Below, piece after piece: positions 27,296 through 44,123 of a stretch of DNA of 64,000 nucleotides; position 1 is the first letter of the stretch; each line of letters begins with the position of its first letter. The position numbers were made by a program, and so were the translations under genes. The notes under the pieces were generated by a model. It saw nothing but the letters and a program-made list of their open reading frames with translations. It searched no databases and was not told where the DNA came from. Origin of the DNA: Alphaproteobacteria bacterium (lineage in GTDB: Bacteria; Pseudomonadota; Alphaproteobacteria; CAAGCB01; CAG-977); assembly GCA_017616015.1 (NCBI GenBank), contig JAFZYY010000030.1, forward strand, positions 247,706 through 311,705, written 5' to 3'.

Positions 27296-27321
27296 AGCGA
27301 AAACCACGCGCTAAGCGCGTG
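27296..27321 (-). terminator. probable terminator for hipA
   Basis: ccacgcgc-taa-gcgcgtgg hairpin immediately 3' of the hipA stop on the minus strand, followed by T-rich sequence. Confidence 0.4.
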
Positions 27322-27344
27322 GGTATCTATTATCCATAGCCGGT

Positions 27345-28442: not shown

Positions 28443-28741
28443 TTCCGGGTTCCCCTTTTACGAACTTTGGGCGTGACCTCTTCCCTGAAAAGAGTGTCCG
28501 GTTTCTGATCAGAGATAAACAGGTTTTCAAAATCGTCGAGCCGACCCAACGCATTTGCCAAACGCAACAACGAATCAAAGGCGATCAGTCCCGTCCTTTC
28601 AAACCGGCGCAAAGACGCGAGCGTAACATCGGAACGGTCGCAAAGCCCCTGCTGTGACAGGTTTTGCTCTAACCGCAACGCCTTGATTCTTTGTGCGGTT
28701 TCCATCTGTATTTCATGCGGTGTTTTTAGAATAAATGTCAT
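28439..28741 (-). CDS. hipB: HipB-like XRE-family HTH antitoxin
   Basis: HTH QRIKALRLEQNLSQQGLCDRSDVTLASLRRFERTG. Overlaps the hipA start by 4 nt. Start chosen at MTFILK; the track ORF extends to 28804. Confidence 0.65.
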   Translation of the reverse strand: MTFILKTPHEIQMETAQRIKALRLEQNLSQQGLCDRSDVTLASLRRFERTGLIAFDSLLRLANALGRLDDFENLFISDQKPDTLFREEVTPKVRKRGTRK

Positions 28742-28847
28742 TATATTATCTTTTATAAGAATTAAAATTATTTTTATGATAATATATAAACGATTATTTT
28801 TCAATAGACGGTTTTCTCGAACGCCACGGACATTCTTGCAACCGAAC

Positions 28848-30572
28848 TTATTCCCGATACAGGTGACTTAAATCCAACCCATCATACTTCAACTTGGTAT
28901 TCACCGTTTCGCGCAGGACTTTAAGACTGACTTCCCCATAATGTTCGGACAGGCTTGATCCACCCTCCCATCCTTGAATACGCGTTACAAACTCCGGATT
29001 GGCTTCATTATTCCGGAACTCGGTACGCACTGTATGACGGAAACTGTGGAAGACATGACCTTCTTCAAACTTATCCGCCTTGGCTTTGATCCCTTTGTTC
29101 ACGCTGTCCAAAAACCGACCGAACCACTTGGAAATGTCATCGGAATAATGTCCCCGCGCATTGACGCGCAGTTCGGGAAACAGCCTCTTTTCCTTGCGCT
29201 TTTCTTTCACATAGTCCAGAAAACCGATTTTTATCAACTCATCATGCAGAGGAACAAGGCGAATCCCCGCCTTTGTTTTGACGTGCTTTTCTCCTTCATC
29301 GTTAATGCTGATTACCCAAACACCGTCAATTTGTCGGACATCTTTCGGGGTCAGTTGACACAATTCGTTGCACCTCGCACCTGTGAAAATTCCCAGCAAC
29401 GGAACCCAAAAACGCGCGTGTCTAGGGTGTGCGTCACCTTTGATCGCATATCCCCGTTTGTCGTCCCGACACCCTGTATAAATCGGAGCGTTGAAGATAT
29501 AGTTCAGTTGCCTTGCCGAAAAAGGCAAACGTTTTATTTCGTCTTCTTCATTGGCGGCACACGGAACATCGACCGTATCATACGGATTCTCGGTCAGATA
29601 TTTATACTTAACCGCCCAACCGAAAAAGCGTTTGATGACAACGAAATAATCCCCCAATGTCTTTGATCCGATGCATTCCGTCGGGTGTTTCTTTCCCCAT
29701 TCTATGTCTTTCAATACGTTGTATGTATCAGGTTTGCTCCGCGCGCTGTTCTTTGTGATGAACGGTAACAGTTCGACGGCGCGTTGCAGGTCTTCCGTCG
29801 TTACGGAACGTACCGTTTTATCTTTGCCCAAGATTTCTTGCAAAATATGGATTTTCTTGCTGACGCGGTTTTTGGAATCGGCGGATTTGTTCTTACGGGA
29901 ATTCTGGTTGTTATACACCTCCACCAAAGCGTCCAGTGTCATATCAGGTTTTAACGGCGTTCTTACCAACATCGGAGAGGAAACATTCTCCGCAGTCAGT
30001 CCCGAAGGGACTCCCACCGTCAGACGTTGAGGAGGAACATCCGTCACTCCGAGAGCGCAATGATGCATAAAATCGCAAAACTGCATTTCAGCGCGCATAA
30101 ATGCTTCTTCTAAGACTCGTTTGGAAGATTCCGTAGGGAACGGGTAATTGTTCCGCAGTAAAAAGGACAGACACTTCCGTTCAATAATCCCATAATCCGC
30201 CACGGCATACTTCGAATGCATCTGCGCAAACCGTTCCATATACGGTTCCGGTAACAACGGTTTTCCCGCGCAGCTTTCCCGTTCCTCCGCAATTCGGGAC
30301 AGCAAATACTCGTACGCGAACGTTTCCGCCTGACTGCGGTCATAATCCAGAGTGTGTTCGTCCTTGTCGTATCCCATTCTTTTTGCCATTTTTCCTTTGA
30401 AGTTCAACCGTTCGTACAAGTCTGACATTACCACGATATAGCGTCGTTGCGCAATTTGCTTATTCTTGGTTCTGAGGGACACCCACAGCTGTCTTTTACC
30501 GACCAGACTGCGGAAAGCGGTCGGTACATTCAGTACCGCATAATACGATGATCCGCGATTATAAAGACTCAT
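28848..30572 (-). CDS. tyrosine-type site-specific integrase (long form, 574 aa)
   Basis: Box I GARCNELCQL, HSFRHTVRTEF (HxxR), SSLSEHYGEV (Y). Its start faces the att repeat at 30686. Confidence 0.85.
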   Translation of the reverse strand: MSLYNRGSSYYAVLNVPTAFRSLVGKRQLWVSLRTKNKQIAQRRYIVVMSDLYERLNFKGKMAKRMGYDKDEHTLDYDRSQAETFAYEYLLSRIAEERESCAGKPLLPEPYMERFAQMHSKYAVADYGIIERKCLSFLLRNNYPFPTESSKRVLEEAFMRAEMQFCDFMHHCALGVTDVPPQRLTVGVPSGLTAENVSSPMLVRTPLKPDMTLDALVEVYNNQNSRKNKSADSKNRVSKKIHILQEILGKDKTVRSVTTEDLQRAVELLPFITKNSARSKPDTYNVLKDIEWGKKHPTECIGSKTLGDYFVVIKRFFGWAVKYKYLTENPYDTVDVPCAANEEDEIKRLPFSARQLNYIFNAPIYTGCRDDKRGYAIKGDAHPRHARFWVPLLGIFTGARCNELCQLTPKDVRQIDGVWVISINDEGEKHVKTKAGIRLVPLHDELIKIGFLDYVKEKRKEKRLFPELRVNARGHYSDDISKWFGRFLDSVNKGIKAKADKFEEGHVFHSFRHTVRTEFRNNEANPEFVTRIQGWEGGSSLSEHYGEVSLKVLRETVNTKLKYDGLDLSHLYRE

Positions 30573-30620: not shown

Positions 30621-30685
30621 TGCTAATAGATTCCACAATACAAAAAAGCCAAGTTCGTTTGTTTTCAACGACTTGGCTTGTTGAG

Positions 30686-30729
30686 TGGCTGGGGAACCTG
30701 GACTCGAACCAAGACTAACGGAGTCAGAG
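30686..30729. repeat. 44-bp direct repeat identical to the 3' part of tRNA-Gln (att site)
   Basis: tggctggggaacctggactcgaaccaagactaacggagtcagag is identical to 44050-44093. Flanking bases differ on both sides. Confidence 0.85.
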
Positions 30730-30856
30730 GGCATAATCTCTTGGTTGCACGATGATTGACCTGAATGGTTTGTTATTCGTTTTCTTATTTGAAATCAATA
30801 ACTTACTTCAAAGCTCCGTTCATTTTTCTTAATCTTCTTTTATGGCGATTTGTTTT

Positions 30857-30880
30857 GTCGGTTGACCGCGGGTTGACCGG
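30857..30880. promoter_or_regulatory. GGTTGACCG x2 direct repeats upstream of the P4-type integrase (candidate arm-type sites)
   Basis: gtcggttgaccgcgggttgaccgg. The same motif pair recurs at 43951-43976 at the other island end. Confidence 0.5.
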
Positions 30881-30893
30881 AAGGAGAAGAAAA

Positions 30894-32063
30894 ATGAAAG
30901 TGTTGTTTACTGAAAAATTCATCAGGGAACTGCGTCCGGAAGCCGGAAAAGAGCGTTTGGAAATAGCGGACGAAAGGTGCCCGTATCTGTATTGTCGGGT
31001 TTCGCCCCTCGGGGGAAAAACGTATGCCGTTATAAAAAAGGTTCAAGGAAAGACTGTTCGTGTCACTTTGGGAAAGACGAATGAAATCAGTTTGGATTTT
31101 GCGCGAAGACAGGCGTTCGACTGTTTGCAGAAAATCCGGCAGGGAATCAATCCGAATGAGGAAAAGCGCGCTTTGTCTTCTGAAATGACTTTGGGCGAAC
31201 TTTTTCAGGAATATGTTGAACGGTATGCCAAAGAGCAAACGTCATTAAAAACGCTTCGGGACAACATCAGTCTTTTCAAGCGGCGTTTTTCCCATTGGTC
31301 GGGGAAACGGATTTCGGAATTGCAAACGAAGCACATTGAAACGCTGATAATAAACTTGCGCGACAAGGACGGCATTTCCGCTTCCAACAAGGCTTTGACG
31401 CTGTTGCGTCATATGTATAACAAAGCCATTCAATGGGGATGGAACGGACGCAATCCGACAACCGGAATCGCCAAATATAAACTGGCTTCCAGAGAACGGT
31501 TCGTTTTGCCGGAGGAATTTAAAAAGCTTTTCGACGCCATTGACGGCGATCCCGATCCGGTTCACCGCACGTTCTTTTATGCTTTGCTCTATACGGGGCA
31601 AAGGTGCGGCAATGTTCTGGAAATGAGGTGGGAACATATCAATTTCACGAATGCGATTTGGTATATTCCCAGAACGAAAAACGGAACGTCGATGAGCGTT
31701 CCTCTGGTAAAACAACTCGTTTTTCTGTTGAAAAACCTGAAACGGGAAAGCGTGAAAAGCGATTGGGTGTTTCCGATGGGAGATGACGCAACCCGACATA
31801 TGGGCTATCCGCAAAAGGCGTGGAAGAGGTTGAAACAAACAGCGGGTATTGACAATTTACGGATGCACGATTTGCGCCGGACGGTTGCGAGTTATGAGTG
31901 TATGAACGGCGAAAATCTGTCCGTCGTTTCCAGAACGTTGAACCATAAAACGCTTCAGGCGACGCAAGTTTATGCGCGGGTGGACACGTCGGCGGTCGGT
32001 CGCGCATTGCAAAAAACGGTCAATCTGTTCGAACAAATCGCGAGTCAAAAAGAGGCTTTTTAA
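30894..32063 (+). CDS. int: P4-type tyrosine integrase
   Basis: ATG at 30894 preceded by AAGGAGAAG. N-terminal arm-binding-like region, then RCGNVLEMRWEHI (R), HDLRRT (HxxR), LNHKTLQATQVYARV (H...Y). The track ORF is extended upstream to a non-ATG start at 30765. Confidence 0.85.
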   Translation: MKVLFTEKFIRELRPEAGKERLEIADERCPYLYCRVSPLGGKTYAVIKKVQGKTVRVTLGKTNEISLDFARRQAFDCLQKIRQGINPNEEKRALSSEMTLGELFQEYVERYAKEQTSLKTLRDNISLFKRRFSHWSGKRISELQTKHIETLIINLRDKDGISASNKALTLLRHMYNKAIQWGWNGRNPTTGIAKYKLASRERFVLPEEFKKLFDAIDGDPDPVHRTFFYALLYTGQRCGNVLEMRWEHINFTNAIWYIPRTKNGTSMSVPLVKQLVFLLKNLKRESVKSDWVFPMGDDATRHMGYPQKAWKRLKQTAGIDNLRMHDLRRTVASYECMNGENLSVVSRTLNHKTLQATQVYARVDTSAVGRALQKTVNLFEQIASQKEAF

Positions 32064-32266
32064 GGCTCGATTCAAAGGGGATTTTTCTTTTGTGTCGTCG
32101 GACGAAAAGGCTATCCTGCAAAAAAATCCCCTCTGAAAAACTCTTGATAATTCAATACCCCGTTTTTTTTTGCAGGATAGCCTTTTAGTGCCACAAAAAC
32201 GGCAAAAAAATTTCTTGTTTGAGAATGTCGGCGTTATCTTTTATAAATAGGAAAAGAGGTGTTTTT

Positions 32267-33571
32267 ATGGTTGAAAACGAACGCACGGAATACAAAGAAA
32301 AACTGACCGCCGCTTTGGAAAAGGAAGCGGTGGCGTTCCTGAACGCGCACGGCGGAACGATCTATATCGGCATTGACAAGAACGGAAATACCGTCGGCGT
32401 CGAGAAGTGCGACAAGCTTCAACTGGAAATCAAAGACCGTCTGATAACGGGGATTCGTCCGTCCGTTATGGGCTTGTTCGACATCGCTTGCGAAAGTCTG
32501 GACGGGCGTGATGTAATCCGGATCACGCTTGCCGCGGGCAAAGAACAACCCTACTATATTCGCGCCAACGGTATGAGCGAACGGGGCTGTTTTATCCGCA
32601 TCGGCAGCTCCGCCCAACCGATGACGCAAGAGCAGATCGACTCAATTTACTACCGCAGAACGCATACGTCGTTGAGGAATATGCCGTCGCCGAATCAGCA
32701 CTTGGATTTCACGCAACTGCATATTTACTATGCGGGCAGAAAGCTGACTTTGAACGATTCTTTCGCGGACAATCTGCAACTGAAAACCGACGACGGGCGA
32801 TATAATATGACAGCGTATTTGTGCGCGGACGAAAACGGAATGCCGATTTTATTCGCCAAGTATGCCGGAACGGATCGGGACGTTTTAACGGAAAACAAGA
32901 ACTTCGGATATTGCTCTTTAATCAAAGCGACCGAACAAGTCTTGGACAAGTTTTCCGTTGAAAACAGGATTTACGCGCGCGTAACGGCGACCAAACGCGA
33001 AGAACGCCCGATGGTCGATCCGCAGGCGTTGAGGGAAGCGGTCATCAACGCGATTTTGCATAACGATTATTCATACAGCAACCCGCCGAAGTTCGAAATG
33101 TTTTCGGACAGGATAGAGATCACGTCAACGGGCGGCTTGCCGTGGGGTATGACAAAAGAAGACTTTTTCAACGGCAAATCGTGTCCGCGCAATCCCGAAT
33201 TGATGAGAATCTTTCAGGATATGGAACTGGTCGAGCGTCTGGGTTCGGGCGTGCGGCGTATTTTGAACGCTTATGCGCCGGACGTGTTCGAGATTTCGGA
33301 CACTTTCTTCCGGGTGACATTCCGGTATAAGCAGGCGTTTGATGAACCCGCCTCGAAAACTGCCCAAAAAACTAGGGAAAAAACTAGGGAAAAAACTAGG
33401 GAAAAAATCTTATCTCTGATTCAGGAAAACCCGTCTGTAACAGCGGTTGAACTGGCGGAAAAACTTGGATTGACAGCGAAAGGGATAGAATGGCAGCTGA
33501 AAAAGATGAAAGACGAGGGCGTCATTGAACGTGTCGGTTCGCTCAAAGGCGGCAAGTGGGTGGTAAAGTAA
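32267..33571 (+). CDS. AlbA_2 (Schlafen-like) + HATPase_c_4 + winged-HTH protein, often annotated as putative transcriptional regulator
   Basis: AVAFLNAHGGTIYIGID (AlbA_2); AVINAILHNDYSYSNPPKFEMFSDRIEITSTGG (HATPase_c_4); C-terminal wHTH. Likely start MVENERTEYKE. Confidence 0.7.
   Translation: MVENERTEYKEKLTAALEKEAVAFLNAHGGTIYIGIDKNGNTVGVEKCDKLQLEIKDRLITGIRPSVMGLFDIACESLDGRDVIRITLAAGKEQPYYIRANGMSERGCFIRIGSSAQPMTQEQIDSIYYRRTHTSLRNMPSPNQHLDFTQLHIYYAGRKLTLNDSFADNLQLKTDDGRYNMTAYLCADENGMPILFAKYAGTDRDVLTENKNFGYCSLIKATEQVLDKFSVENRIYARVTATKREERPMVDPQALREAVINAILHNDYSYSNPPKFEMFSDRIEITSTGGLPWGMTKEDFFNGKSCPRNPELMRIFQDMELVERLGSGVRRILNAYAPDVFEISDTFFRVTFRYKQAFDEPASKTAQKTREKTREKTREKILSLIQENPSVTAVELAEKLGLTAKGIEWQLKKMKDEGVIERVGSLKGGKWVVK
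33366..33401. repeat. 3 perfect copies of a 12-bp tandem repeat encoding (KTRE)n inside the 32267-33571 gene
   Basis: aaaaaactaggg x3, translating to KTREKTREKTRE in the linker before the wHTH. Confidence 0.9.
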
Positions 33572-34029: not shown

Positions 34030-34674
34030 ATGTCCGAATCAAAGCAAGTCATCAGCGCGGAGCGTGTCGCGGAATACGGCGAGGTTTTGACCGCCGAGCG
34101 CGAAGTCGAAGCGATGTTGGATCTGGTTTCGGCGGAGGCGGCGCGAATCGACAGTCGTTTTTTAGAACCCGCGTGCGGAAACGGGAATTTTCTGACCGCT
34201 ATTTTGCGGCGCAAGTTGGAAACGGTCGCACGGCTTTACAAAGTAAAGCCGTCTGAATATCAGGAACAATCGTTGTTTGCGTTGGCTTGTGTTTATGGAA
34301 TCGACATTCTGCCCGACAACGCGCAGGCGGCGCGCGACCGTTTGACGGAACAAATGCGCGACAAATACAAAACGCTGTATAAAACCGAACCGGCGGAAGC
34401 CTATTTGAAAGCGGCGCGTTATATTTTAAGCAAAAACATCGTTTGCGGCGACGCGTTGAACGGCGTTGAAAAAATCAGCTTTATTCAATGGTCGTTGATT
34501 GACGGGAATTTCAAGCGGGAAGAATACAAGTTCGGGCATTTAACGGCGTCCTGTGCGGATTTGCCGTTGTTCGGATTTGCGGATGGCGATCCCGAAAAGC
34601 CCGTTTATCAAGCAAAATCCGTCAAAACATATCCATTAATATCTGTTTTAAAAATAGGGGAATGCGATGATTGA
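34030..34674 (+). CDS. methyltransferase-like protein (SAM motif I present, no clear catalytic (D/N)PP(Y/F))
   Basis: FLEPACGNGNFL (motif I-like), preceded by LTAEREVEAML (motif X-like). No NPPY; a CGDALNG stretch sits in its place. Overlaps the next gene by 8 nt. Confidence 0.5.
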   Translation: MSESKQVISAERVAEYGEVLTAEREVEAMLDLVSAEAARIDSRFLEPACGNGNFLTAILRRKLETVARLYKVKPSEYQEQSLFALACVYGIDILPDNAQAARDRLTEQMRDKYKTLYKTEPAEAYLKAARYILSKNIVCGDALNGVEKISFIQWSLIDGNFKREEYKFGHLTASCADLPLFGFADGDPEKPVYQAKSVKTYPLISVLKIGECDD

Positions 34675-36157
34675 ACAACACGCGCCCGATATTTTGTCCT
34701 GTATCGCCAACCTGTCCAGCGATGAAGTCTTCACGCCGCCGAAAGTCGCAAACGACGTTCTTGACCTGTTGCCGCAGGAATTGTTTTCCGATTCGAAAAC
34801 AAAATTCCTTGACCCGTGTTGCAAAAGCGGCGTTTTCTTGCGTGAAATCGCTAAGCGTTTGTTGGTCGGATTGGAAAAGGAAATACCCGATTTACAAAAA
34901 CGGATAGACCATATTTTCCACAATCAGCTGTTCGGATTGGCGTTGACGGAATTGACGGGATTGATGAGCCGGCGTTCCGTTTATTGTTCCAAAGACGCAA
35001 GCGGGAAATACAGCGTTTCGTTGTTCAAAAACGGACAGGGACATATCCGTTACAAACGGTGCGAACACGATTTTTATAACGGAAAATGCCGTCAATGCGG
35101 CGCGTCGCAAAGTCAATACGACCGCGGCGAAGCGTTGGAAACGCACGCCTATTCTTTCATTCACACAGACAAGGTTTTTAACGATATGCAGTTTGATGTC
35201 ATTATCGGCAATCCGCCGTATCAGTTAAATGATGGTGGAAATGCCGCAAGTGCGAGTCCAATTTATCATTTGTTTGTTGAACAAGCTAAACGCTTAAATC
35301 CCCGTTATTTAACGATGATCATTCCGTCCCGTTGGTTTGCAGGTGGCAAAGGTTTAGATGATTTCAGAGATGAAATGTTGCACGATGAACGGATCAGAGT
35401 GATTTGTGATTTTCCGACGCCTTCAGATTGTTTCCCAGGTATAAGATTAGAAGGCGGCGTTTGTTATTTCCTGTGGAATAGGGATAATAAAGGATTATGT
35501 GAAGTATCAACATTTAAAGACGGGATAAAAATATCGTCTTTAGCTCGTCCTTTGCTAGAGAAAGGTTGCTCTACTTTTGTCAGATATAATGAAAGCATTT
35601 CTATTTTAAGAAAAATCCAAAATTTCAATGAAATAACGATGGATAAAATGGTTTCTTCAAGAAAACCCTTTGGACTTCCCACCAATTTCCCGAATATTTT
35701 TAAAGAACCCAAAAAAGGATATATAAAAATATATGGATATTTGAAGGAAGGATATGTTAATCCTGCTCATATAAAACAAAACAGAGAATGGGTAGATAAG
35801 ATAAAAGTTTATATTTCAAAGGCGTATGGCGAAGTTAATACAAAGAATTCTCTTTTTGTTTTAGGAAAACCATTTATTGGAGAAAAAGGAACTTGCTGCT
35901 TAGAAACGTATCTGGTTGCAGGACTGTTCGATAAAATATCCTCTGCGGAAAATTTATGTTCTTACATTAAAACGAAATTTTTCAGATTTTTGGTTTCTCT
36001 TAAAAAAAATACACAAGATGCTACAGCAAAGGTCTATTCCTTTGTTCCGGTGCAGGATTTTTCAAAGCCGTGGACGGACGAGGAACTGTATGAAAAATAC
36101 GGGTTGAGCGAGGAGGAAATCGCTTTCATCGACTCTATGATTCGTCCGATGGAGTAA
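34667..36157 (+). CDS. Eco57I/gamma-class N6-adenine DNA methyltransferase
   Basis: Motif X FTPPKVANDVLDLL, motif I DPCCKSGVFL, motif IV IIGNPPYQ. Has a CxxC...CxxC insertion (YKRCEHDFYNGKCRQCG). About 250 aa follow NPPY, presumably the target-recognition domain. Confidence 0.8.
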   Translation: MIEQHAPDILSCIANLSSDEVFTPPKVANDVLDLLPQELFSDSKTKFLDPCCKSGVFLREIAKRLLVGLEKEIPDLQKRIDHIFHNQLFGLALTELTGLMSRRSVYCSKDASGKYSVSLFKNGQGHIRYKRCEHDFYNGKCRQCGASQSQYDRGEALETHAYSFIHTDKVFNDMQFDVIIGNPPYQLNDGGNAASASPIYHLFVEQAKRLNPRYLTMIIPSRWFAGGKGLDDFRDEMLHDERIRVICDFPTPSDCFPGIRLEGGVCYFLWNRDNKGLCEVSTFKDGIKISSLARPLLEKGCSTFVRYNESISILRKIQNFNEITMDKMVSSRKPFGLPTNFPNIFKEPKKGYIKIYGYLKEGYVNPAHIKQNREWVDKIKVYISKAYGEVNTKNSLFVLGKPFIGEKGTCCLETYLVAGLFDKISSAENLCSYIKTKFFRFLVSLKKNTQDATAKVYSFVPVQDFSKPWTDEELYEKYGLSEEEIAFIDSMIRPME

Positions 36158-36161
36158 ATCT

Positions 36162-38627
36162 ATGACCGAATTACTCGATTTTCCCGCCCGTCCGAAAATT
36201 TACGCTTACACTTTACCGGAATACAAAGACAAAAACTGGCTGAAAATCGGCTATACGACACGCGATGTCCGCGAACGCGTCAATGAACAGCACGGTGTGT
36301 TAAAACCGATTGAAACTGCCGCCGAAATCGTTTTTGAAACGGACGCCGTGCGTGATGACGGCACTTTGTTTCTTGATCACGATTTTCATCGCTATATCAA
36401 ACAAAACTGTATCAAACATTTGCGCGGCGAATGGTATGAAATCACTCTGCCCGAATTGAAAGCGGCGATGACCGCTTTTAAAAAACGTCGTCCAAACGTC
36501 GATCTGAAACGAACGGAAACTTTTTCTATGCGTCCCGAACAGCGCGACGCCGTTGATATGACCGCCGCTTATTTCAAGGTTTTTTCCGTTGAAAAGACGG
36601 GTAAAACGCCTCATTTCCTTTGGAACGCGAAAATGCGTTTCGGCAAAACGTTTGCCGCCTATCAACTTGCCAAAAAAATGGGGTGGAAAAAAATCCTTGT
36701 CCTGACGTTTAAGCCTGCTGTTCAAAGCGCGTGGGAATCCGACCTGAAAACACACACAGATTTTTCGGAGTGGCAGTTTGTCGTCAATGACGGGGAAGGT
36801 TATCAAAGAATCAATAAATCAAAGCCTTTTGTTTGGTTCGCGTCGTTTCAGGATTTGCTCGGCAAAAACGAGTTGGGCGGTATTAAAACCAAAAATGAAA
36901 TCGTCCACGCGATCAACTGGGATTGTATCATTCTTGACGAATACCATTTCGGCGCATGGCGCGACAGAGCCAAAGACCTCTACGATGCGGAAGAAAAAGA
37001 GGAAAATCCGCAAATAGACGATTATGACGAAGAATTGATGCCTTTGACGACAAACGCCTATCTGTATTTATCGGGAACGCCTTTTCGCGCCCTGAACAAC
37101 GGCGAGTTTCTGGAAGATCAGATTTTCAACTGGACTTATACGGATGAACAACGCGCCAAACGGGAATGGAACGAGGAAACGGAAAATCCGTATCTTGAAT
37201 TGCCTCAAATGGTGATGATGACTTACCGCCTGCCGCGTGAAATCCGTGAAATCGCTTTGCAGGGCGAGTTTGACGAATTCGATCTGAACGAATTTTTCAA
37301 AACTGAAAATAAAGACGGAGAGCCTGTCTTTAAACACGAAAACGAAGTGAAAAACTGGCTTGATTTGATACACGGTCAATACCTGCCGACCGAAATCGAC
37401 AGCCTGAAAACAGGCAAGCGTCCGCCGATGCCTTTTTCCGATGTCCGTCTGACCGCTTGTTTGCGTCATACATTGTGGTTTCTGCCGAATGTCGGCGCGT
37501 GCAAAGCGATGGAAAAGCTTTTAAAAAATCATTCTTTTTACGGTAAATATAAAGTCGTCTGCTGTGCCGGACAAGAAGCGGGCATCGGCGTTGACGCTTT
37601 ACCGCCCGTTACGGACGCAATCGGGAATAATCCGCTGAACACGTTATCCATTACGCTCTCTTGCGGCAAACTGATGACGGGTGTTTCCGTCAAGGCGTGG
37701 GGCGGTATTTTGATGTTGCGTAATACGTCCAGTCCCGAAACATATTTTCAGGCGGCGTTCCGCGTGCAAACGCCGTTCAAGCTTGTCAATCCGACCGGTG
37801 TTTATCCGAACGAAACGCAAATCGTCAAACCCGTTTGCTATGTCTTTGATTTCGCGCCCGACCGCGCGTTAAAACAAATCGCCGAATACAGCGGGCGGCT
37901 TGATTTGAACAGTCCCGACAGTCCGGAACAAAAAGTTTCGGAATTCGTCAAATTTCTGCCCGTCCTGTGCTATGACGGCGAAACGATGAACCTCTTGGAC
38001 GCGGGACAGTTGCTTGATATGGTCGTGTCGGGGACGGCTTCGACGATGCTTGCCCGTCGTTGGGAAAGCGCGCTGTTAGTCAATGTCGATAACGAAACGT
38101 TGAAGAAACTTCTGAACAATCCCAAAGCGATGGAAGCTTTGGAACGCATTGAGGGATTCCGCGGACTGAACAAAGAACTGTCCACAATCGTCAACCGCTC
38201 CGAAGCCTTGAAAAAAACTAAAAAAGAGGCGAGCGGTGGCGAAAGCGCGGCGGAAAAACGCGAACTGACTAAAGAAGAAAAAGAAATCAAATCCAAACGG
38301 AAAATCATTCAGGAAAAATTGCTGAAATTCGCGACCAGAATCCCCGTGTTTATGTATCTGACGGACGCGCGGGAACAAACTTTGAAAGACGTGATAACGC
38401 AACTTGAACCGGCTTTGTTCCGCAAAGTTACGGGCTTGACGATCCCTGATTTTGAATTGCTTGTCAGTATCGGGATTTTCAATGCGCAAGTGATGAACTC
38501 CGCGATTTTGGCGTTTAAACGATATGAAGAAGCGTCCTTAATCTATACGGGTTTGAACAGACACGAAAACGAACTGATCGGCGGGTGGGATACAACCTTT
38601 ACTGTCGAAGAAATGAGGCAGATGTAA
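36162..38627 (+). CDS. GIY-YIG nuclease domain fused to SF2 helicase (putative restriction subunit)
   Basis: N-terminus KIYAYTLPEYKDKNWLKIGYTTRDVRERVNEQ (GIY-YIG pattern). Helicase motifs MRFGKT, ILDEYHF, LSGTPF. 821 aa, starts 5 nt after the methyltransferase stop. Confidence 0.7.
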   Translation: MTELLDFPARPKIYAYTLPEYKDKNWLKIGYTTRDVRERVNEQHGVLKPIETAAEIVFETDAVRDDGTLFLDHDFHRYIKQNCIKHLRGEWYEITLPELKAAMTAFKKRRPNVDLKRTETFSMRPEQRDAVDMTAAYFKVFSVEKTGKTPHFLWNAKMRFGKTFAAYQLAKKMGWKKILVLTFKPAVQSAWESDLKTHTDFSEWQFVVNDGEGYQRINKSKPFVWFASFQDLLGKNELGGIKTKNEIVHAINWDCIILDEYHFGAWRDRAKDLYDAEEKEENPQIDDYDEELMPLTTNAYLYLSGTPFRALNNGEFLEDQIFNWTYTDEQRAKREWNEETENPYLELPQMVMMTYRLPREIREIALQGEFDEFDLNEFFKTENKDGEPVFKHENEVKNWLDLIHGQYLPTEIDSLKTGKRPPMPFSDVRLTACLRHTLWFLPNVGACKAMEKLLKNHSFYGKYKVVCCAGQEAGIGVDALPPVTDAIGNNPLNTLSITLSCGKLMTGVSVKAWGGILMLRNTSSPETYFQAAFRVQTPFKLVNPTGVYPNETQIVKPVCYVFDFAPDRALKQIAEYSGRLDLNSPDSPEQKVSEFVKFLPVLCYDGETMNLLDAGQLLDMVVSGTASTMLARRWESALLVNVDNETLKKLLNNPKAMEALERIEGFRGLNKELSTIVNRSEALKKTKKEASGGESAAEKRELTKEEKEIKSKRKIIQEKLLKFATRIPVFMYLTDAREQTLKDVITQLEPALFRKVTGLTIPDFELLVSIGIFNAQVMNSAILAFKRYEEASLIYTGLNRHENELIGGWDTTFTVEEMRQM

Positions 38628-38800
38628 AACATCTATTATATGGAAAAATTATACCCGTTTTTATTAGCGGTTCACAAAAGGATAAAATCAGACAATTATC
38701 GTTGCTATTCGATATTAATATCGTTGACGTTTTCAATCTGATATAGAACTCGTATAAAAAAGAACTGGAGAAGGGCAACATTAAGGTAGATTTTAAACAC

Positions 38801-39613
38801 TTATGTGTTCGACGTATTCAAAATTTTAGAGATACCATTATGTTTTTCTAACCAATCATAATAGCCGTCTATTTCAGGATATGTAAGATTTATTACAAAT
38901 TCAATTCCCCTTATGACAAGAATAAAATATACGGTAGCACATATGGCATTACCTATTTTCCCTTCTTTTATAATGAGAAAATCGCATTCAAATTTTTTCT
39001 GAATAGCACATCCTGATGAATCAATATCATATTCATACATACCGTAGATTCTTCGAATACTACATGGCCAATCATAAGGCGTTCCTAGTCTCGCATAATT
39101 ACGTATTAAGTCATATTGTACATCGTCAATAATTTCATTTAAACTATTCTCGATGTCTTTTAGACAATAAGCCCAATATTCAAGGGCGATTTTTGCAAGT
39201 AATCGAGATGTGTAAATATTACTTTCAAACTTTGTATTATCTGTAAAAACTGGAATATATAGATGTCCGCCTTTTGTGTTTTTTATAGCATTAAAAACAC
39301 TATCATTCATTATATGAAAAGTTAAGGTTAAAGGGGAATCTTCTATACAAATTTGTGTTTTTTTATCATTAAAGGTACATTCAACAGCAGGCATTCTACC
39401 TATTTTATTTGGAATTTTTTCATACAAACGCCATAATTTAACAACGTCTAAGTCCATAAATTTTTTTTCGACTTTACGTGCAAAATAGTTATTACATTTA
39501 TCACAGACATATCCACGGGGAAGTATTAAAGTCGTGTTGCCCAGTGATTCTGGTATTATATGTTCTATACTTTTTGTGCTTGAAGAATCTTGCTTACAAA
39601 ACAAACAACGCAT
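38801..39613 (-). CDS. HNH endonuclease family protein
   Basis: N-terminal CLFCKQ...HIIPESLGN...CDKCN (Cys4/His HNH core). 270 aa, AT-rich. Confidence 0.7.
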   Translation of the reverse strand: MRCLFCKQDSSSTKSIEHIIPESLGNTTLILPRGYVCDKCNNYFARKVEKKFMDLDVVKLWRLYEKIPNKIGRMPAVECTFNDKKTQICIEDSPLTLTFHIMNDSVFNAIKNTKGGHLYIPVFTDNTKFESNIYTSRLLAKIALEYWAYCLKDIENSLNEIIDDVQYDLIRNYARLGTPYDWPCSIRRIYGMYEYDIDSSGCAIQKKFECDFLIIKEGKIGNAICATVYFILVIRGIEFVINLTYPEIDGYYDWLEKHNGISKILNTSNT

Positions 39614-39873
39614 TTTATTCCTTTACTCAGAGTCAAACTTTAGTCGTTGAGTAAATATTATAAAAAAAGTCAAGTCTTTTTGTGACAAGAAAAAAATGTA
39701 CCCTGAGTGTTATTAATGAGAAAAACTTTCGTGGTAATTCTCTGAAGAGTGTCGAAAAAATTTTGTTCTATAATCATCAGTCGATGGATAATTCAGAAGT
39801 GAAGCAAAAAAATGAACAAATCAGTTTGCGGAACACAAAAATCAAAGTTGAAGAAGGGCGATAAATGTGAAAA

Positions 39874-40245
39874 TTAATCTATATATATAAAAGATTGAGG
39901 GGGTTTTGCTATTCCATAATCCGCAAGAGTTTTTTCTTTTTTAAAGCGTGTCACCTTTCCCAATTGATAAGCATAAGCACATTCTTTTTGAGAAAAATAC
40001 TCCATAAATTTTTTTCTGCTAATGCCGGCTCTCGGAGATGTTTGATTCCATAAATCGCTGGGCGTAGATTTTAAGATATCTGTAACTTCAACTTCGCCAA
40101 CAACCTTCATTTTTGGGGCCGAGGTATAAATTAGAATTTTGTTGACCGAGCGAGAGGCGCATTTGCGGCGAAATTCAAATTTCTTTTCACCGGATAAAAT
40201 CCGTTCTGAATATTCCGGTTTGATAGATAGCAAAATCGTACACAT
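39874..40245 (-). CDS. ASCH domain protein
   Basis: 123 aa. ILLSIKPEYSERILSGEKKFEFRR matches the ASCH/PUA-like N-terminal beta-barrel pattern. Confidence 0.65.
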   Translation of the reverse strand: MCTILLSIKPEYSERILSGEKKFEFRRKCASRSVNKILIYTSAPKMKVVGEVEVTDILKSTPSDLWNQTSPRAGISRKKFMEYFSQKECAYAYQLGKVTRFKKEKTLADYGIAKPPQSFIYID

Positions 40246-40256
40246 GAGAACCTCTC

Positions 40257-41777
40257 TTAAACATACTTTATGGAAGTTTGAGCCAGTTGTAAAATTTTTT
40301 CATATTGTGCATCGGTAATTCGAGTAAACGATTGAGGACCACTTGGAAAAGAAAGAATTTTTTCATCCCATAGTTCTTTTAAAATAGGTCTTTTTACCAA
40401 AGGCGAAACCTGTATAAATTTTACGGCTATTAAATTGCCATTAAAATGATTCCATATGGCACGTAATTCTTTTTCTGGAAAGACACTTCTGTTTTGGCAG
40501 TATTTTATTAAATCGATTTCAGAATGCAAATCCGTTTTTATCTCATCAACGATACAAAGAGTCGATAAAACAGATTTATGGGCTTTTTTTTCATACGGCT
40601 CTGCCATTCTGTAAAAAAATACTAAATCCCCCGGATGAGCCCCATTCGTTTCTGTGGACCACGGTATATAAACTTTTTGTAAAGCATATTTACAAGCATC
40701 TTTTCCCAAAAAATTTATTTGGTTTTCTGTTTTTAACTGAGAATCGGGGAGAAGATGAGTGTGCCAACATGCTTTAATTGGCATAATGAATTTATTAACA
40801 TTATGAAGTATATTTGGGAAATTCTTTTTAGGAGAAAGAGTTGAATCATATGTGTTTAATTTTTTTACAAAAACCGCCTCTTCCTTACCCGTAGAAGTGT
40901 TTTTTCCATATCTAAAAAATCCCCATCTTTCGAATAATTCTTGGAGAGCTCCAAGTTCGGGGCGGTCTTCAAACAGGGTAACATAAATTTCATCTACCTT
41001 GCGTTTTAAAGCATTATCAAAGATGATTTTTATAAATCTTTCTCCTAGACGAAAGCCAGTAGATTCGACTTTAAATGTTCCTACTTTTAATCGACGTTTG
41101 GGTAAGAAGGTCGGTTGCATATATGGATAAGGTTCCGTTTCTTCTTCTGTTTTTAAATATAAAAAACCTAAAATATTATTTTGATCGTCATTACAAATAT
41201 ATGCTTCTTCATCGCATTTTTTTGCGAACCAATCTTCAAAACCGGGATAATCTTTTTTAAATGTATTAAAGAAATTATCCTTTACATTTAGATCCCCAAA
41301 AAGAGTTTTTCGGACAGACAACGCTTTATATTCAATTAACTGGGGATAACGTTCTGAAGCAGATTTAATGAAGTGATCTATGGAATAGACTCTATCTCCT
41401 AAACCTATTTCTGCCGCTTTTTTTTGTAATCCCTTATCTTCAGTTATTAAAATATTGGCGTGATTTAAAAATAAAGAATTTAACAAAATAGTATCGTTAA
41501 AATCATTCTCAGTTTTATCAATGCTTTTAAATTTTTCATAGATTGTCTTATCGATACTCTCGTTAACCTTTAAAACATTATAAGAGGACAATTTTATTTT
41601 AAAGGCTTCTCTAACGGTAGGGCTATTATATTTTTCTATTTCCTTTATAGAAACAGGATGGACAATCTTCTCAAAATGCAAGCGATCTAGCCAACGGAAA
41701 AGATGTCCAATGCTGTAATTCATTGGAAAAATACTTTCACGATAGATCAGTATGTTTGTATCAAGAAGAACCCTCAT
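40257..41777 (-). CDS. PIN domain + GNAT acetyltransferase-like + PUA-like (EVE/ASCH-type) fusion protein
   Basis: 506 aa. MRVLLDTNILIY and ILITEDKG (PIN). TGFRLGERFIKIIFDNALKRKVDEIYVTLFE then LQELFERWGFFRYG (GNAT motifs A/B). C-terminal GDLVFFYRM...KSVLSTLCIVDEI (EVE-like). Confidence 0.6.
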   Translation of the reverse strand: MRVLLDTNILIYRESIFPMNYSIGHLFRWLDRLHFEKIVHPVSIKEIEKYNSPTVREAFKIKLSSYNVLKVNESIDKTIYEKFKSIDKTENDFNDTILLNSLFLNHANILITEDKGLQKKAAEIGLGDRVYSIDHFIKSASERYPQLIEYKALSVRKTLFGDLNVKDNFFNTFKKDYPGFEDWFAKKCDEEAYICNDDQNNILGFLYLKTEEETEPYPYMQPTFLPKRRLKVGTFKVESTGFRLGERFIKIIFDNALKRKVDEIYVTLFEDRPELGALQELFERWGFFRYGKNTSTGKEEAVFVKKLNTYDSTLSPKKNFPNILHNVNKFIMPIKACWHTHLLPDSQLKTENQINFLGKDACKYALQKVYIPWSTETNGAHPGDLVFFYRMAEPYEKKAHKSVLSTLCIVDEIKTDLHSEIDLIKYCQNRSVFPEKELRAIWNHFNGNLIAVKFIQVSPLVKRPILKELWDEKILSFPSGPQSFTRITDAQYEKILQLAQTSIKYV

Positions 41778-41780
41778 GTG

Positions 41781-42809
41781 TTACACTCTTTTCCTTTTGT
41801 TGAAGATATTAACGAGCCCTTTTATTAAAAATATCCCTATTAATATAACGATTAGAAACAATAGTATTTTATATTCAATAGGAATCTTTCCAAACGCAAA
41901 AGGTTTGTTTTCAAAAATCTTTCTGATATTGCTGATTGCTATTAACGAACTGCATAAAATATTTACAAATATTGCAATTATTATCTGTTTTGCTCCAATT
42001 TTTTCTTCGGAAAAAATTGAAAAAAACGAATAACTCGGCTTGCCTTCATCTTTATAAAAAGTTGTTATATACGAATCATTATTTATGCCTTCTATGTTTG
42101 GAAGGTACTTTTTAAAAAAGTTTGTTTCAAGATTACGTATATTAGACAGTTTTTTATCATCAACAAAAATAACTTCATATGTATTTGGAATGACATGTAG
42201 CATTAATGCCTTTTGAATATCACTGCACTCGAGGTTCTTTTTATCTATCGTTTCAATGATTTTTTGTGGCATATTCCTTTTTTCATTAATTTTAAAATCG
42301 AATATAAAGATGTTTTTTGAAATACTTCCTTTGAAAAGAGCAAAAGTTTTTTCATACGTTTGGATAAGAAATCTTATGTAAGGATGAGCATCATTAGCTG
42401 ATTTATTTGTAAAGGTTATATTCAAAACTCCATCTTTTTCTACATGGCATAATACGTTTAAAGCCGCAATTTTTCGGTCGCTGTTTTTAAAAGAGATTAT
42501 TGATCCGTTGTGTTTATTTCCATTGATTGGAGATATAGATTCTACAACTTCATTAAAAATGAATTGAGCATTATCAGAATCGCTAAACTTTTCGTGAAGA
42601 CTTTCTATTTTGCATTTTTCACTTATCCAAGGAGCAAAAAAGAACATATTATAATTCTCATCAATTTTTAAAGAATCCTTACAAAATTCTACTCCTATTT
42701 CGATGCAAGTTTTTTTATCGCGGATATCCCATGAGCATATTTGCATACGTTCAATTCTTTTCGTTTCTATATTGTTTTTTTCGTGCAAAAGAAATAATGA
42801 GTTATCCAT
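41781..42809 (-). CDS. membrane protein with two C-terminal TM helices and an ~270-aa N-terminal soluble domain
   Basis: Hydrophobic helices IIIAIFVNILCSSLIAISNI and ILLFLIVILIGIFLIKGLVNIF at the C-terminus. 4-nt gap to the next gene. Confidence 0.55.
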   Translation of the reverse strand: MDNSLFLLHEKNNIETKRIERMQICSWDIRDKKTCIEIGVEFCKDSLKIDENYNMFFFAPWISEKCKIESLHEKFSDSDNAQFIFNEVVESISPINGNKHNGSIISFKNSDRKIAALNVLCHVEKDGVLNITFTNKSANDAHPYIRFLIQTYEKTFALFKGSISKNIFIFDFKINEKRNMPQKIIETIDKKNLECSDIQKALMLHVIPNTYEVIFVDDKKLSNIRNLETNFFKKYLPNIEGINNDSYITTFYKDEGKPSYSFFSIFSEEKIGAKQIIIAIFVNILCSSLIAISNIRKIFENKPFAFGKIPIEYKILLFLIVILIGIFLIKGLVNIFNKRKRV

Positions 42810-43341
42810 TTAACACTCCTGCTAGAAATTCGATAACCTCTTTCTCATCATATCCATTATACTGCATATGATGAATATATAAAGGAGTTCCGGTGTGGTT
42901 TGAAAAGATTTCGGCTTGATGATGTTCCGCTGTCATAAGAGTTGTTATCTCGAGTAAAGAATAATCTTTTTTATCTCTATGCAACAAGTTTTGTTGAAGT
43001 CTTACGGGATCTGCTTCTAATAACAATATTTTTTCAAAATGCATTTTTGCTAAATCATCTAACGATAATAAGTCCGGAATATTTCCTTTTTTTAAAATAC
43101 AGAAATGACCGTCTAAGAAAAATAGAGGATATGTTTTTAATTTTTTTTCAATCTGCTCAATTAGAAGGGCTTGGTTGTTTTTTTTATTCGTCACATATTT
43201 ATTGCGACCATATGTTTCATCATTGACTTCAGATATTAACATACCGGCAGAAAAATGCGGGATTTTCGTTTTTTCAAAGATACTTTCCAAAAGTGTACTT
43301 TTCCCGACACCATAACAGCCCGCGACAAAAATTACTCCCAT
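42802..43341 (-). CDS. P-loop NTPase, nucleotide-kinase-like
   Basis: Walker A AGCYGVGKST and Walker B-like LFFLDGHF. 179 aa. Overlaps the next gene by 8 nt. Confidence 0.65.
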   Translation of the reverse strand: MGVIFVAGCYGVGKSTLLESIFEKTKIPHFSAGMLISEVNDETYGRNKYVTNKKNNQALLIEQIEKKLKTYPLFFLDGHFCILKKGNIPDLLSLDDLAKMHFEKILLLEADPVRLQQNLLHRDKKDYSLLEITTLMTAEHHQAEIFSNHTGTPLYIHHMQYNGYDEKEVIEFLAGVLNG

Positions 43342-43436
43342 TAATCTCTCCTTTTAAAGATATAGCTTTTTTATCACAATTATGTGAACATTTCAAGAAC
43401 ATTTATAGGCTAATTGCATTGATAAAACAGGGCGGA

Positions 43437-43661
43437 TTACTCCGCCCTGTCTGTTGATACGTTTTTGTTGATCCACTCGTCCAAATCGGTTTTTCGGTAT
43501 CGGATGACTTTCCCCAATTTGACAAACGGCAAGCCGTATTTGTTCGTCATACGCCAGACGGCAAGCGTGTTGATCTTGACGCCGATGTAAACAGCGGCGT
43601 CTCGCGGTGTCATCAATCCGGCGGGGGATATGTTGCAGGCTTCTTTACAGGTTCGTTCCAT
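43437..43661 (-). CDS. xis: AlpA-family excisionase/HTH regulator
   Basis: MTPRDAAVYIGVKINTLAVWRMTNKYGLPFVKLGKVIRYRKTDLDEWI matches the AlpA/Xis pattern. The track ORF is longer (to 43727); start chosen at MERT. Confidence 0.6.
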   Translation of the reverse strand: MERTCKEACNISPAGLMTPRDAAVYIGVKINTLAVWRMTNKYGLPFVKLGKVIRYRKTDLDEWINKNVSTDRAE

Positions 43662-43950
43662 ATGTTCCTCCTTTCTTTGACGAAGGCTTGAACACACAGA
43701 AACACCAGCGCACACGTCCTTCATCAAATAAATGATGTTGATTTCGTTTGAATTGTGTGCAGGCTCGGTAAATACCGGTCTGTGCTAAAAAGCTGTTATC
43801 AATCTAAGCATATCAACGCCTTGTTTGCAATATCCCCCGTGTATGATTGTGATTGATTATCGTTACCGGACGGAAAAAAGAAAATACGGATTGCGTTTTT
43901 TACGCTTTTGACTGATGATGAATGAGGAAGATTGATGACATTTGAACGGT

Positions 43951-43976: not shown

Positions 43977-44049
43977 AGTTCCTTTGACAAGGGTGTTGAA
44001 AGCTTGTCCGGGAATCAAAAAAGCCGTTGAAAATCAACGGCTTATCTGT

Positions 44050-44123
44050 TGGCTGGGGAACCTGGACTCGAACCAAGACTAACGGAGTCAGAGTCCGCTG
44101 TTCTACCTTTAAACTATTCCCCA
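44050..44123 (-). tRNA. tRNA-Gln (anticodon CUG)
   Basis: 74 nt including CCA. Acceptor stem tggggaa/ttcccca, T-loop TTCGAGT, anticodon loop cuCUGac. Its 3' 44 nt (44050-44093) are duplicated at 30686-30729. Confidence 0.9.

Follow-up and report, generated by a model that had tools for sequence, protein, structure and literature searches.

The region is probably best read as an expanded candidate defence or toxin-antitoxin (TA) module, in which the PDC-M11A/B pair and an AAA_17 kinase are joined by two add-ons, a predicted membrane protein (gene 2) and an HNH_5 nuclease, drawn from a shared accessory pool. M11A, M11B and the AAA_17 kinase represent the known part of this assembly, while the gene 2 family and the HNH gene, as recurring optional add-ons, represent the new part. 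The preliminary description had proposed an undescribed four-gene system, to be abandoned if profile searches placed it in one already described; because PADLOC and the literature do so for genes 1, 3 and 4, these three can no longer count as new.

Layout of the five-gene block and its island

The window (the whole 64,000-nt stretch of DNA analysed) was shown to contain four intact, tightly packed minus-strand genes, as first described: gene 1 (43341-42802, 179 aa), gene 2 (42809-41781, 342 aa), gene 3 (41777-40257, 506 aa) and gene 4 (40245-39874, 123 aa). Their junctions consist of an 8-nt overlap (genes 1/2), a 3-nt gap (genes 2/3) and an 11-nt gap (genes 3/4). A fifth gene, encoding the 270-aa HNH_5 nuclease (38801-39613, minus strand), follows after a 260-nt gap which holds a -35/-10-like site at 39686-39657, and this gene probably has its own promoter. 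The AT-rich character of the block was also confirmed, with a GC content of 0.28-0.36 over 38500-43500 versus ~0.43-0.50 on either side, and the block therefore takes in the HNH gene (39613-38801) too. The HNH gene, treated earlier as a neighbour, shares this block and recurs with M11-like operons (see below). The five genes together make up a single AT-rich cargo unit of a tRNA-Gln island, with a restriction-modification (RM) module alongside.

The proposed 13.4-kb tRNA-integrated island is evident from a 55-nt direct repeat (44039-44093, partner copy 30675-30729; spacing 13,364 nt), an integrase gene (30765-32063) near the partner copy and an HTH_17 gene. Over their full length the two copies share 91% identity, with no differences across the 43 nt that correspond to the 3' part of the tRNA, and the copy at 44039-44093 overlaps the 3' part of tRNA-Gln(CTG) (44050-44123, minus strand). 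The HTH_17 (AlpA/Xis-like) gene at the tRNA end (43437-43727, minus strand; Pfam HTH_17 E 6.6e-10) is kept upstream of the kinase gene in related islands (L003, L010, L017, L018 and L102-L104), and represents an island function rather than a part of the cassette. The RM-like module (34030-38627, plus strand), as identified by Pfam and PADLOC, comprises a 214-aa protein, an Eco57I-type methylase and a T5orf172 + ResIII helicase-nuclease; the same module comes after the cassette in L003, L010 and L102-L104. A COG2865-like gene is located at 32219-33571. Furthermore, the flanks of M11 loci were found to hold ResIII, YgjP, T5orf172, DpnII, LlaJI, AbiH-like, KwaB, GmrSD and AAA_15 genes, which, together with the RM-like module alongside, bears out the defence-island setting.

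For comparison, 80 metagenome loci were dereplicated to 49 M11 clusters; this set comprises the highest-scoring loci (48-82% identical, mostly from gut samples), and the frequencies given here describe it rather than a global census. The expected co-occurrence of the genes elsewhere was observed, the same order being present in independent metagenome contigs (L003/4, L017 and L102-L104) at 72-93% protein identity. Comparison of the window with relatives sharing the five-gene block (for L003, the first four genes only) yielded dN/dS values of about 0.08-0.19. Gene order is therefore more than chance, since it recurs in independent contigs at such dN/dS values, and all five genes are under purifying selection.

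The M11 core and its AAA_17 partner

Gene 3 matched the PADLOC model PDLC04422 (PDC-M11A) with an E-value of 3.8e-180 (residues 1-505 of 506, aligned with 1-498 of the 501 profile positions), while gene 4 matched PDLC04425 (PDC-M11B; E 4.1e-46, residues 3-123). PDC-M11 is a two-gene phage defence candidate (Payne et al. 2024, bioRxiv 10.1101/2024.01.29.577857), PDC systems being explicitly unvalidated. In accordance with this candidate, genes 3 and 4 match both models full length and adjoin each other, in or beside RM systems. The window differs in adding three linked genes (encoding the AAA_17 kinase, the 2-TM protein and HNH_5) without a significant PADLOC match.

The M11A protein consists of a PIN domain (aa 1-145, nt 41343-41777), a GNAT-like domain (aa 146-320, nt 40818-41342) and a PUA/ASCH-like domain (aa 321-506, nt 40260-40817), all encoded on the minus strand, and fold matches were found for PIN, GNAT and ASCH. 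The fusion as such thus agrees with the PIN-GNAT-EVE-like PUA reading made initially, except that the barrel is nearer to ASCH than to EVE (Pfam EVE below threshold, E 0.03). The acidic quartet D6, E46, D95 and D114, assigned as catalytic by location within the PIN fold, is invariant in both A1 and A3, including their archaeal and Bacilli members, and the PIN domain is predicted to be VapC-like with an intact acidic active site. The GNAT-like domain exhibits the GNAT fold; no Pfam GNAT model matched gene 3 at E <= 0.1, and profile comparison with canonical GNAT was not significant (E 0.11). Its motif A, G241-F-R243-L-G245-E-R247, is non-canonical compared with R/Q-x-x-G-x-G/A, while G241, R243, G245 and R247 are invariant. 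Matelska et al. 2017 (PMC5499597) regard the domain as degenerate and, from its motif A, conclude that it is probably inactive. Certain members of the M11A family (L008 and L009) lack the PIN domain, and PIN and PUA domains have been swapped independently between close relatives. Parts are gained and lost modularly between such relatives.

M11B (39874-40245, minus strand) is a stand-alone ASCH protein, as had been proposed, with a Pfam ASCH match (E 5e-7) of 30.8 bits, above the curated cut-off of 21.2 bits. Among the 49 dereplicated M11 loci, its gene lies downstream of that for M11A wherever the available sequence extends far enough. The nearest solved relative, based on phmmer searches against the PDB, is the Zymomonas ASCH protein 5gus/5guq (E 3e-9), for which ribonuclease activity has been reported. 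Sequence similarity to the N4-acylcytosine amidohydrolase YqfB was not detected, YqfB (1TE7) being missing from the phmmer PDB matches at E <= 1.

Gene 1 (42802-43341, minus strand) encodes a P-loop NMP-kinase-like NTPase, its Pfam AAA_17 match (E 1.4e-13) being consistent with the original kinase-like assignment. The protein is weakly similar to adenylate, UMP-CMP and thymidylate kinases, and its best PADLOC match is a weak one to VakA (E 2e-4). The Walker A residues (G8..G11.G13-K14-S15-T16) and R122-D123 are at least 95% conserved among 59 distinct homologues, and dN/dS for this gene is 0.15-0.24. The kinase gene is located directly upstream of M11A in 28 of the 49 clusters, and is a frequent but optional partner of the M11 core.

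An operon combining AAA_17, (PIN)-GNAT-EVE and ASCH near RM genes has been described computationally by Iyer et al. 2013, Matelska et al. 2017 (PMC5499597) and Bell, Wolf & Koonin 2020 (PMC7641849). The pertinent passages of the latter two class such operons as putative TA systems, place the AAA_17-containing form next to type I RM genes, and credit Iyer et al. 2013 with first proposing nucleic-acid acetylation; Matelska et al. use the names PIN_15/PIN_17. The window contains the three-domain fusion, a second ASCH protein and an AAA_17 ATPase, and shares with these operons, as portrayed there, the fusion architecture, the second PUA-like protein, the optional AAA_17 and the association with RM and COG2865-like genes. 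In contrast, HNH domains occur in those passages only as EVE-HNH fusions, and in the published α-proteobacterial form ASCH is fused to an HTH domain, but it is a stand-alone protein in the window; HTH-ASCH fusions were also found here in α-proteobacterial M11-like operons. The retrieved passages of the Iyer, Matelska and Bell papers make no mention of a transmembrane partner. A single search returned more than 3,700 PIN-GNAT-PUA/ASCH homologues from bacteria, archaea, plasmids and phages; no experimental test of such an operon was found in the literature.

Gene 2 and HNH_5 as recurring add-ons

Gene 2 (41781-42809, minus strand) encodes a predicted cytoplasmic, β-sandwich-rich body (aa 1-270) followed by a hairpin of two membrane helices at the C-terminus (aa 273-299, nt 41913-41993; aa 311-337, nt 41799-41879). 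The AlphaFold model (pLDDT 91.5) displays a β-rich body and two C-terminal helices, and in 45 of 50 family members the hydrophobic segments number exactly two, both within the final 95 residues, corroborating the initial reading of a soluble domain with two C-terminal TM helices. The family is small (118 representatives), without a relative in Pfam, PADLOC, PHROG or the PDB, and gene 2 gave no informative fold match. Assignment as a SLATT 2-TM effector was rejected: the PADLOC RTasSLATT match in one of 50 members (E 0.033) represents chance, and none of the 50 matches Pfam SLATT. Gene 2 belongs to a previously undescribed family of predicted membrane proteins which recurs as an optional M11 add-on.

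In three of three readable gene-2-centred contexts (the window type, L005 at 38% identity and L016 at 30%), gene 2 is adjoined by M11A. In L016, gene 2, HNH, M11A and M11B overlap or abut between hsdM and hsdS. Gene 2 is nevertheless present in only eight of the 49 M11 clusters, and three locations were observed for it: between the kinase and M11A genes, before HNH, and after M11B. It is present in L017 and missing from L010 and L018, at M11A identities of at least 90%. Its inclusion in a four-gene cassette, as initially proposed, is thus supported in that it adjoins M11A elsewhere, but it is an optional insertion that is missing from most M11 operons.

The HNH_5 protein (Pfam HNH_5 E 1.1e-12) has a conserved C-terminal domain of ~200 aa. 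Residues C3, C6, E17-H18, N26, C37, C40 and N41 are invariant among eight homologues, and the catalytic His and Asn and the CxxC...CxxC zinc site are all present. The HNH gene was found in three of the 49 clusters in addition to the window; homologues abut M11A in L016, L049 and L052, and M11-like operons in Rhizobium, Azospirillum and Prevotella records. Among the five HNH-centred plasmid matches, three abut M11-like operons, in which M11A is ~25% identical or rearranged. The HNH gene is kept in L102-L104 and missing from L003 and L010, and homologues without M11 occur beside unrelated ATPases in Agrobacterium. This HNH subfamily is tied to M11-like operons in three phyla, and the gene represents a recurrent optional partner of these operons, not a mere neighbour.

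Possible function and alternative explanations

The likely function is that of a modular defence or TA system which reads modified nucleic acid and has PIN, HNH and membrane outputs. The PIN acidic quartet, the HNH motif and the Walker A motif are all intact in the window. The PUA-like barrels of M11A and M11B would serve to detect a base modification, carried either by invading DNA or RNA or by tRNA; PIN would be the primary nuclease output, checked or directed by the ASCH partner, with the kinase-like NTPase as a regulator. HNH may contribute DNA cleavage, and the gene 2 protein may provide a membrane-damaging abortive-infection output, an anchor or a membrane sensor.

Certain established systems offer precedents for parts of this scheme. 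PUA-family readers are the sensors of type IV restriction enzymes such as the EVE-HNH protein VcaM4I, which likewise combine PUA-like readers with nuclease domains in defence-island contexts. In the window, by contrast, HNH and the reader belong to different proteins, the reader-fused nuclease is a predicted VapC-like PIN domain (typically an RNase), and there is in addition a GNAT-like domain, along with a kinase and a membrane protein. A further defence precedent is BapA (PMC13160076), an ASCH-like eraser protein acting on hypermodified phage DNA: in Brig3/BapA, a small ASCH-fold protein is similarly encoded beside an effector attacking modified phage DNA, a likeness by description, although that effector is a DNA glycosylase rather than a PIN protein. 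The differences from VapBC TA systems are that no VapB-like antitoxin is present, that PIN shares its polypeptide with two more domains, and that PIN is missing altogether from certain family members.

Among the alternatives, gene 2 and HNH could be self-sufficient single-gene defence or selfish cassettes lodged in or beside M11 and not cooperating with it, a possible though doubtful explanation. M11 itself lodges within RM operons, and such 'guilt by embedding' is a documented pattern; the variable position of gene 2 and its absence from 41 of the 49 clusters are as compatible with an embedded, independent cassette as with a partner, and its gain and loss between relatives with nearly unchanged M11A, the HNH spacer with its promoter-like site and the Agrobacterium HNH homologues point the same way. 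However, in every readable context (three of them gene-2-centred) gene 2 was accompanied by M11A/B, also in the 30-38% identical relatives; its start and stop overlap or abut neighbouring genes in both the window and L016; and no homologues were found among 72,556 plasmid records, 50,697 phage records or viral contigs. The three-phylum tie of the HNH subfamily to M11-like operons likewise argues for partnership.

A TA or addiction module that stabilises the island and has no antiviral role, with PIN and/or the GNAT-like domain as toxin and ASCH as antitoxin or regulator, is rather unlikely. The predicted intact VapC-like active site, the published TA classification, the α-proteobacterial HTH-ASCH fusions, which suggest autoregulation, and carriage of M11 modules on islands, ICEs and plasmids are consistent with it; the repeated embedding in or beside RM, Abi, Kiwa and GmrSD genes and the independent PIN and PUA swaps, typical of specificity arms races, are not, and simple addiction needs no extra nuclease or membrane effectors. 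TA and defence roles are, moreover, not mutually exclusive.

Least probable is the acyl-mark model (Iyer et al. 2013), as adopted in the preliminary description, in which GNAT writes an N-acyl nucleobase mark, PUA reads it, ASCH erases it in a YqfB-like manner, and PIN and the membrane protein execute: the invariant motif A residues, an additional second, canonical GNAT in a Prevotella M11-like variant and the N4-acyl-cytosine amidohydrolase activity possible for ASCH proteins speak for it, but it is weakened by the degenerate motif A, the non-significant GNAT profile comparisons and the similarity of M11B to the Zymomonas protein rather than YqfB.

Within the favoured explanation of an expanded M11 module with add-ons, a more specific version can be offered tentatively: M11 would be a sensing core with exchangeable executioners, gene 2 a dedicated M11-only effector or sensor family and HNH_5 a second dedicated output. 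The cytoplasmic domain of the gene 2 protein might then be triggered by the M11 core or its product, upon which the hairpin would breach, or signal at, the membrane.

PIN-GNAT-PUA/ASCH operons are widespread, and since 2013 attention has been drawn to them on four occasions. This locus and its relatives comprise forms with three, four or five of the genes, at protein identities of 65-93% according to the gene and relative compared, and this natural dissection series offers a handy start for testing the core function and whether the add-ons alter the output. The findings suggest that the two-gene PADLOC definition of PDC-M11 is too narrow, and the gene 2 family, previously unannotated, now has a genomic context from which a testable role follows. 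If M11 does serve as a core with exchangeable executioners, gene 2 would represent a new membrane-effector family, and a two-gene candidate would become a five-component system.

The cassette and its tRNA-Gln island

The cassette is encoded on the minus strand and consists of gene 1 (43341-42802; 179 aa), gene 2 (42809-41781; 342 aa), gene 3 (41777-40257; 506 aa) and gene 4 (40245-39874; 123 aa), which specify an AAA_17 kinase-like NTPase, a β-rich protein with two transmembrane segments, a PIN-GNAT-like-PUA fusion (M11A) and an ASCH protein (M11B), respectively, followed by a gene encoding an HNH_5 protein (gene 5; 39613-38801, minus strand). These genes are annotated as 'hypothetical protein' in the source Alphaproteobacteria metagenome-assembled genome (MAG). 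The first four genes were located exactly where the preliminary description had placed them, with an 8-nt overlap between genes 1 and 2 and gaps of 3 and 11 nt at the two following junctions. Promoter and terminator scans showed no enrichment compared with shuffled sequences, and the operon structure therefore rests on spacing and synteny. A structured RNA scan of the region returned the tRNA alone above threshold. The GC content across 38500-43500 was 0.28-0.36, compared with ~0.43-0.50 on both sides, in agreement with the AT-richness noted earlier, and the AT-rich block takes in the HNH gene, one gene beyond the span originally delimited.

The tRNA-Gln island is a genuine element, in line with the preliminary description: a 55-nt direct repeat (30675-30729 and 44039-44093; spacing 13,364 nt) overlaps the 3' part of tRNA-Gln(CTG) (44050-44123), and genes for a tyrosine integrase (30765-32063) and an HTH_17 (AlpA/Xis-like) protein (43727-43437) were found. 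The remaining island genes are likewise defence-like cargo, encoding a COG2865-like Schlafen/AlbA_2 protein with HATPase_c_4 and winged-HTH domains (32219-33571), an HTH_3 regulator, an Eco57I-type methylase and a T5orf172 plus ResIII helicase-nuclease. COG2865 is marked in a figure of (PIN)-GNAT-EVE neighbourhoods by Bell et al. 2020 (PMC7641849). A second mobile element (25579-30572) lies in tandem just beyond the distal repeat of the island and carries a DUF6538 plus Phage_integrase gene (28848-30572), a hipBA-like pair (HipA, 27345-28442; HTH_3, 28439-28804) and a DUF927 primase-like gene (25579-27225).

A conserved M11A-M11B core

Profile comparisons showed the domain readings originally made for all four genes to be correct. 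The PADLOC model PDC-M11A covers gene 3 end to end (E 3.8e-180), and PDC-M11B is matched by gene 4 (E 4e-46). Gene 1 encodes a P-loop protein of the AAA_17 family (Pfam, E 1.4e-13) with no more than weak similarity to NMP kinases; across 59 distinct homologues, its Walker A motif is conserved, as is an R122-D123 pair. M11A has more than 3,764 homologues and no PDB sequence relatives; its PIN acidic residues (D6, E46, D95 and D114) are invariant, archaeal and Bacilli members included. Its GNAT-like domain did not match Pfam GNAT models, and motif A reads R243-L-G245-E-R247, compared with the standard R/Q-x-x-G-x-G/A. Gene 4 scored above the Pfam cut-off as an ASCH protein and has Zymomonas ASCH as its closest solved relative (E 3e-9); YqfB was absent among its PDB sequence matches, leaving a YqfB-like role unsupported.

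The locus is a variant of an already known, uncharacterised module type. PDC-M11 is among 145 unvalidated 'guilt-by-embedding' candidates added to PADLOC (Payne et al. 2024, bioRxiv 10.1101/2024.01.29.577857), and PDC systems were explicitly left out of DefensePredictor as unvalidated. According to Matelska et al. 2017 (PMC5499597), PIN_15 and PIN_17 proteins share the PIN-GNAT-PUA architecture, their operons always contain a second PUA/ASCH protein and sometimes an extra ATPase, and the GNAT-like domain lacks motif A and was argued to be probably inactive. [quoted passage not shown] A full-text literature search found no experimental test of PDC-M11-type operons. The earlier proposal of an undescribed system thus fails for three of the four genes, gene 2 being the exception, given the PDC-M11A and PDC-M11B matches and the published AAA_17 operons.

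A survey to establish whether the cassette is a unit covered 94 M11A loci, namely 80 metagenome and 4 genome loci together with those obtained by contig look-up, which were dereplicated at 90% identity into 49 clusters; these are the best-scoring, mostly gut-derived loci, and their frequencies do not represent a global census. A scan of genome contigs with M11A alone yielded only the four genome loci. M11B was found downstream of M11A in every locus with sufficient downstream sequence, the kinase gene directly upstream of M11A in 28 of the 49 clusters, a gene 2 homologue in eight and a homologue of the window HNH protein in three, indicating that M11A and M11B form the conserved core, the kinase a common third gene and gene 2 a rare addition. 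In an archaeal locus (L006, Methanobacteriota MAG; 7490-9750), a 414-aa ORF containing an ASCH-like segment comes after the M11A-M11B pair, and a second M11B-like ORF lies beyond it.

The gene order recurs elsewhere, as had been predicted. The five-gene block (kinase, gene 2, M11A, M11B, HNH), followed by the same RM module, is kept in three related loci (L102-L104), while a fourth, L003, carries the first four genes and lacks HNH. For all five genes, dN/dS values were 0.08-0.19 (window versus L102-L104 and the four genes of L003). Furthermore, gene 2 is present in L017 and absent from L010 and L018, which occupy the same island type and encode M11A proteins at least 90% identical to that of L017.

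M11A is itself a domain mosaic. Among L010, L017, L103 and L003, identity to the window protein was 87-94% for the GNAT-like domain, 59-90% for PIN and 65-67% for PUA, with PIN and PUA varying independently; for example, the PIN, GNAT-like and PUA domains were 90, 93-94 and 65% identical in L010 and L017, and 59, 87 and 67% identical in L103. Conservation in M11A thus centres on the GNAT-like domain, with PIN and PUA being swapped independently, a pattern expected for specificity modules in an arms race and suggestive of domain-level recombination of nuclease and reader modules. Viruses also carry copies, as PHROGs families match M11A (phrog_6345, PIN-less, E 2e-85; phrog_10674, full length) and M11B (phrog_3136, E 2e-41); viral GNAT-EVE proteins are remarked on by Bell et al. 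(PMC7641849).

Gene 2 and HNH_5 as accessory genes

Gene 2 defines an unannotated membrane-protein family tied to the M11 module, reported here for the first time. When 1.84 billion representatives were searched exhaustively with phmmer, 118 members were retrieved (50 at E <= 1e-30), compared with six homologues in a word-indexed search, to which the 50-sequence alignment added two further proteins. No Pfam family was common to the 50 aligned members, no match was obtained to PHROG and no relative among PDB sequences; tblastn of plasmid and phage records and searches of viral contigs with sub-alignments were likewise negative. A SLATT identity for the hairpin was rejected, as the one weak PADLOC match was not common to the family. 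In the AlphaFold model, which is confident (pLDDT 91.5, pTM 0.85), residues 1-270 form a β-rich body, and residues 273-299 and 311-337 form two long helices at the C-terminus. Exactly two hydrophobic segments within the last 95 residues, and none elsewhere, were observed in 45 of the 50 members, and the family shares nine invariant residues (W27, G39, F85, N86, Y144, R146, R178, R225 and E228). The body is probably cytoplasmic, judging from the absence of a signal peptide and the basic C-terminal tail.

M11A adjoins gene 2 in every gene-2-centred locus of sufficient extent (window type, L005 and L016), these being the only three unbiased readable contexts. In L005 (gene 2 38% identical), the gene 2 stop overlaps the M11A start. 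In L016 (293-9400; 30% identical), gene 2, HNH_5, M11A and M11B overlap or abut between type I RM hsdM and hsdS, with GmrSD (GmrSD_N) and AAA_15 genes after the RM operon, an arrangement that is defence nested within defence. A further locus (L001; 51% identical) carries kinase and gene 2 up to the contig end. When loci were identified through M11A, gene 2 was positioned upstream of M11A (L094 and L048) or downstream of M11B (L079 and L053); these loci adjoin a C5 methylase and NUDIX pair, or DpnII or LlaJI restriction genes. In L094 (1047-3618), the genes preceding gene 2 encode a C-5 cytosine DNA methylase and a NUDIX_4 protein, and this context hints at a connection with cytosine-modification metabolism.

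The HNH gene is drawn from that accessory pool as well, and the present data provide new evidence for its HNH_5 subfamily as another recurrent M11 partner. The window protein retains its HNH and zinc-site residues; for its C-terminal domain, which is also conserved, no relative could be detected, and the HNH family is without PDB sequence relatives. It is encoded 260 nt from gene 4 behind its own -35/-10-like site and may consequently be transcribed separately. In L016, L049 and L052, a homologue immediately precedes M11A. An HNH-centred tblastn of plasmid records returned five full-length matches. In Rhizobium and Azospirillum, HNH is convergent with an operon of the order HTH-ASCH → PIN-GNAT-EVE → AAA-ATPase at a distance of 28-30 nt, and the M11A encoded there is only ~25% identical to that of the window. 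In Prevotella, the genes after HNH encode a 685-aa GNAT + PIN + GNAT-like + PUA fusion and an ASCH protein, and the set adjoins a type IIG methylase and an AAA_15/23 ATPase. On two Agrobacterium plasmids, HNH is located beside other ATPases with M11 absent nearby. The Prevotella locus (L099; Prevotella sp. oral taxon 299, NC_022111.1, 6001-9366) is a rearranged relative, whose fusion carries the extra canonical GNAT domain (Acetyltransf_1, E 1.5e-13; motif A FRGKGVS) before PIN-GNAT-like-PUA.

Proposed action of the module

Modular gain and loss of parts under purifying selection is evident across these loci, which persistently neighbour RM, Abi, Kiwa and GmrSD genes, and the PIN, HNH and Walker A motifs of the window cassette are intact. 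We propose that the two PUA-like barrels of M11A and M11B may recognise a modified base, either on the nucleic acid of an invader or on tRNA, with PIN as the putative main nuclease output under the control or direction of the ASCH partner, and the NMP-kinase-like protein as a candidate regulator. HNH and the membrane protein would be optional extra outputs, acting through DNA cleavage and through membrane damage or anchoring, respectively. Precedents exist in type IV restriction enzymes, whose sensors are PUA-family domains, and in BapA, which is ASCH-like and acts on phage DNA with hypermodified bases (PMC13160076).

Alternatively, gene 2 and HNH could represent independent nested cassettes, or the M11 module could be a plain toxin-antitoxin addiction system. 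The preliminary model of an acyl mark with writer, reader and eraser, akin to the nucleic-acid acetylation idea credited to Iyer et al. 2013 in both PMC5499597 and PMC7641849, is weakened by the degenerate motif A of M11A and by the resemblance of gene 4 to Zymomonas ASCH and not to YqfB. The natural series of three-, four- and five-gene forms is new and suited to experiments.
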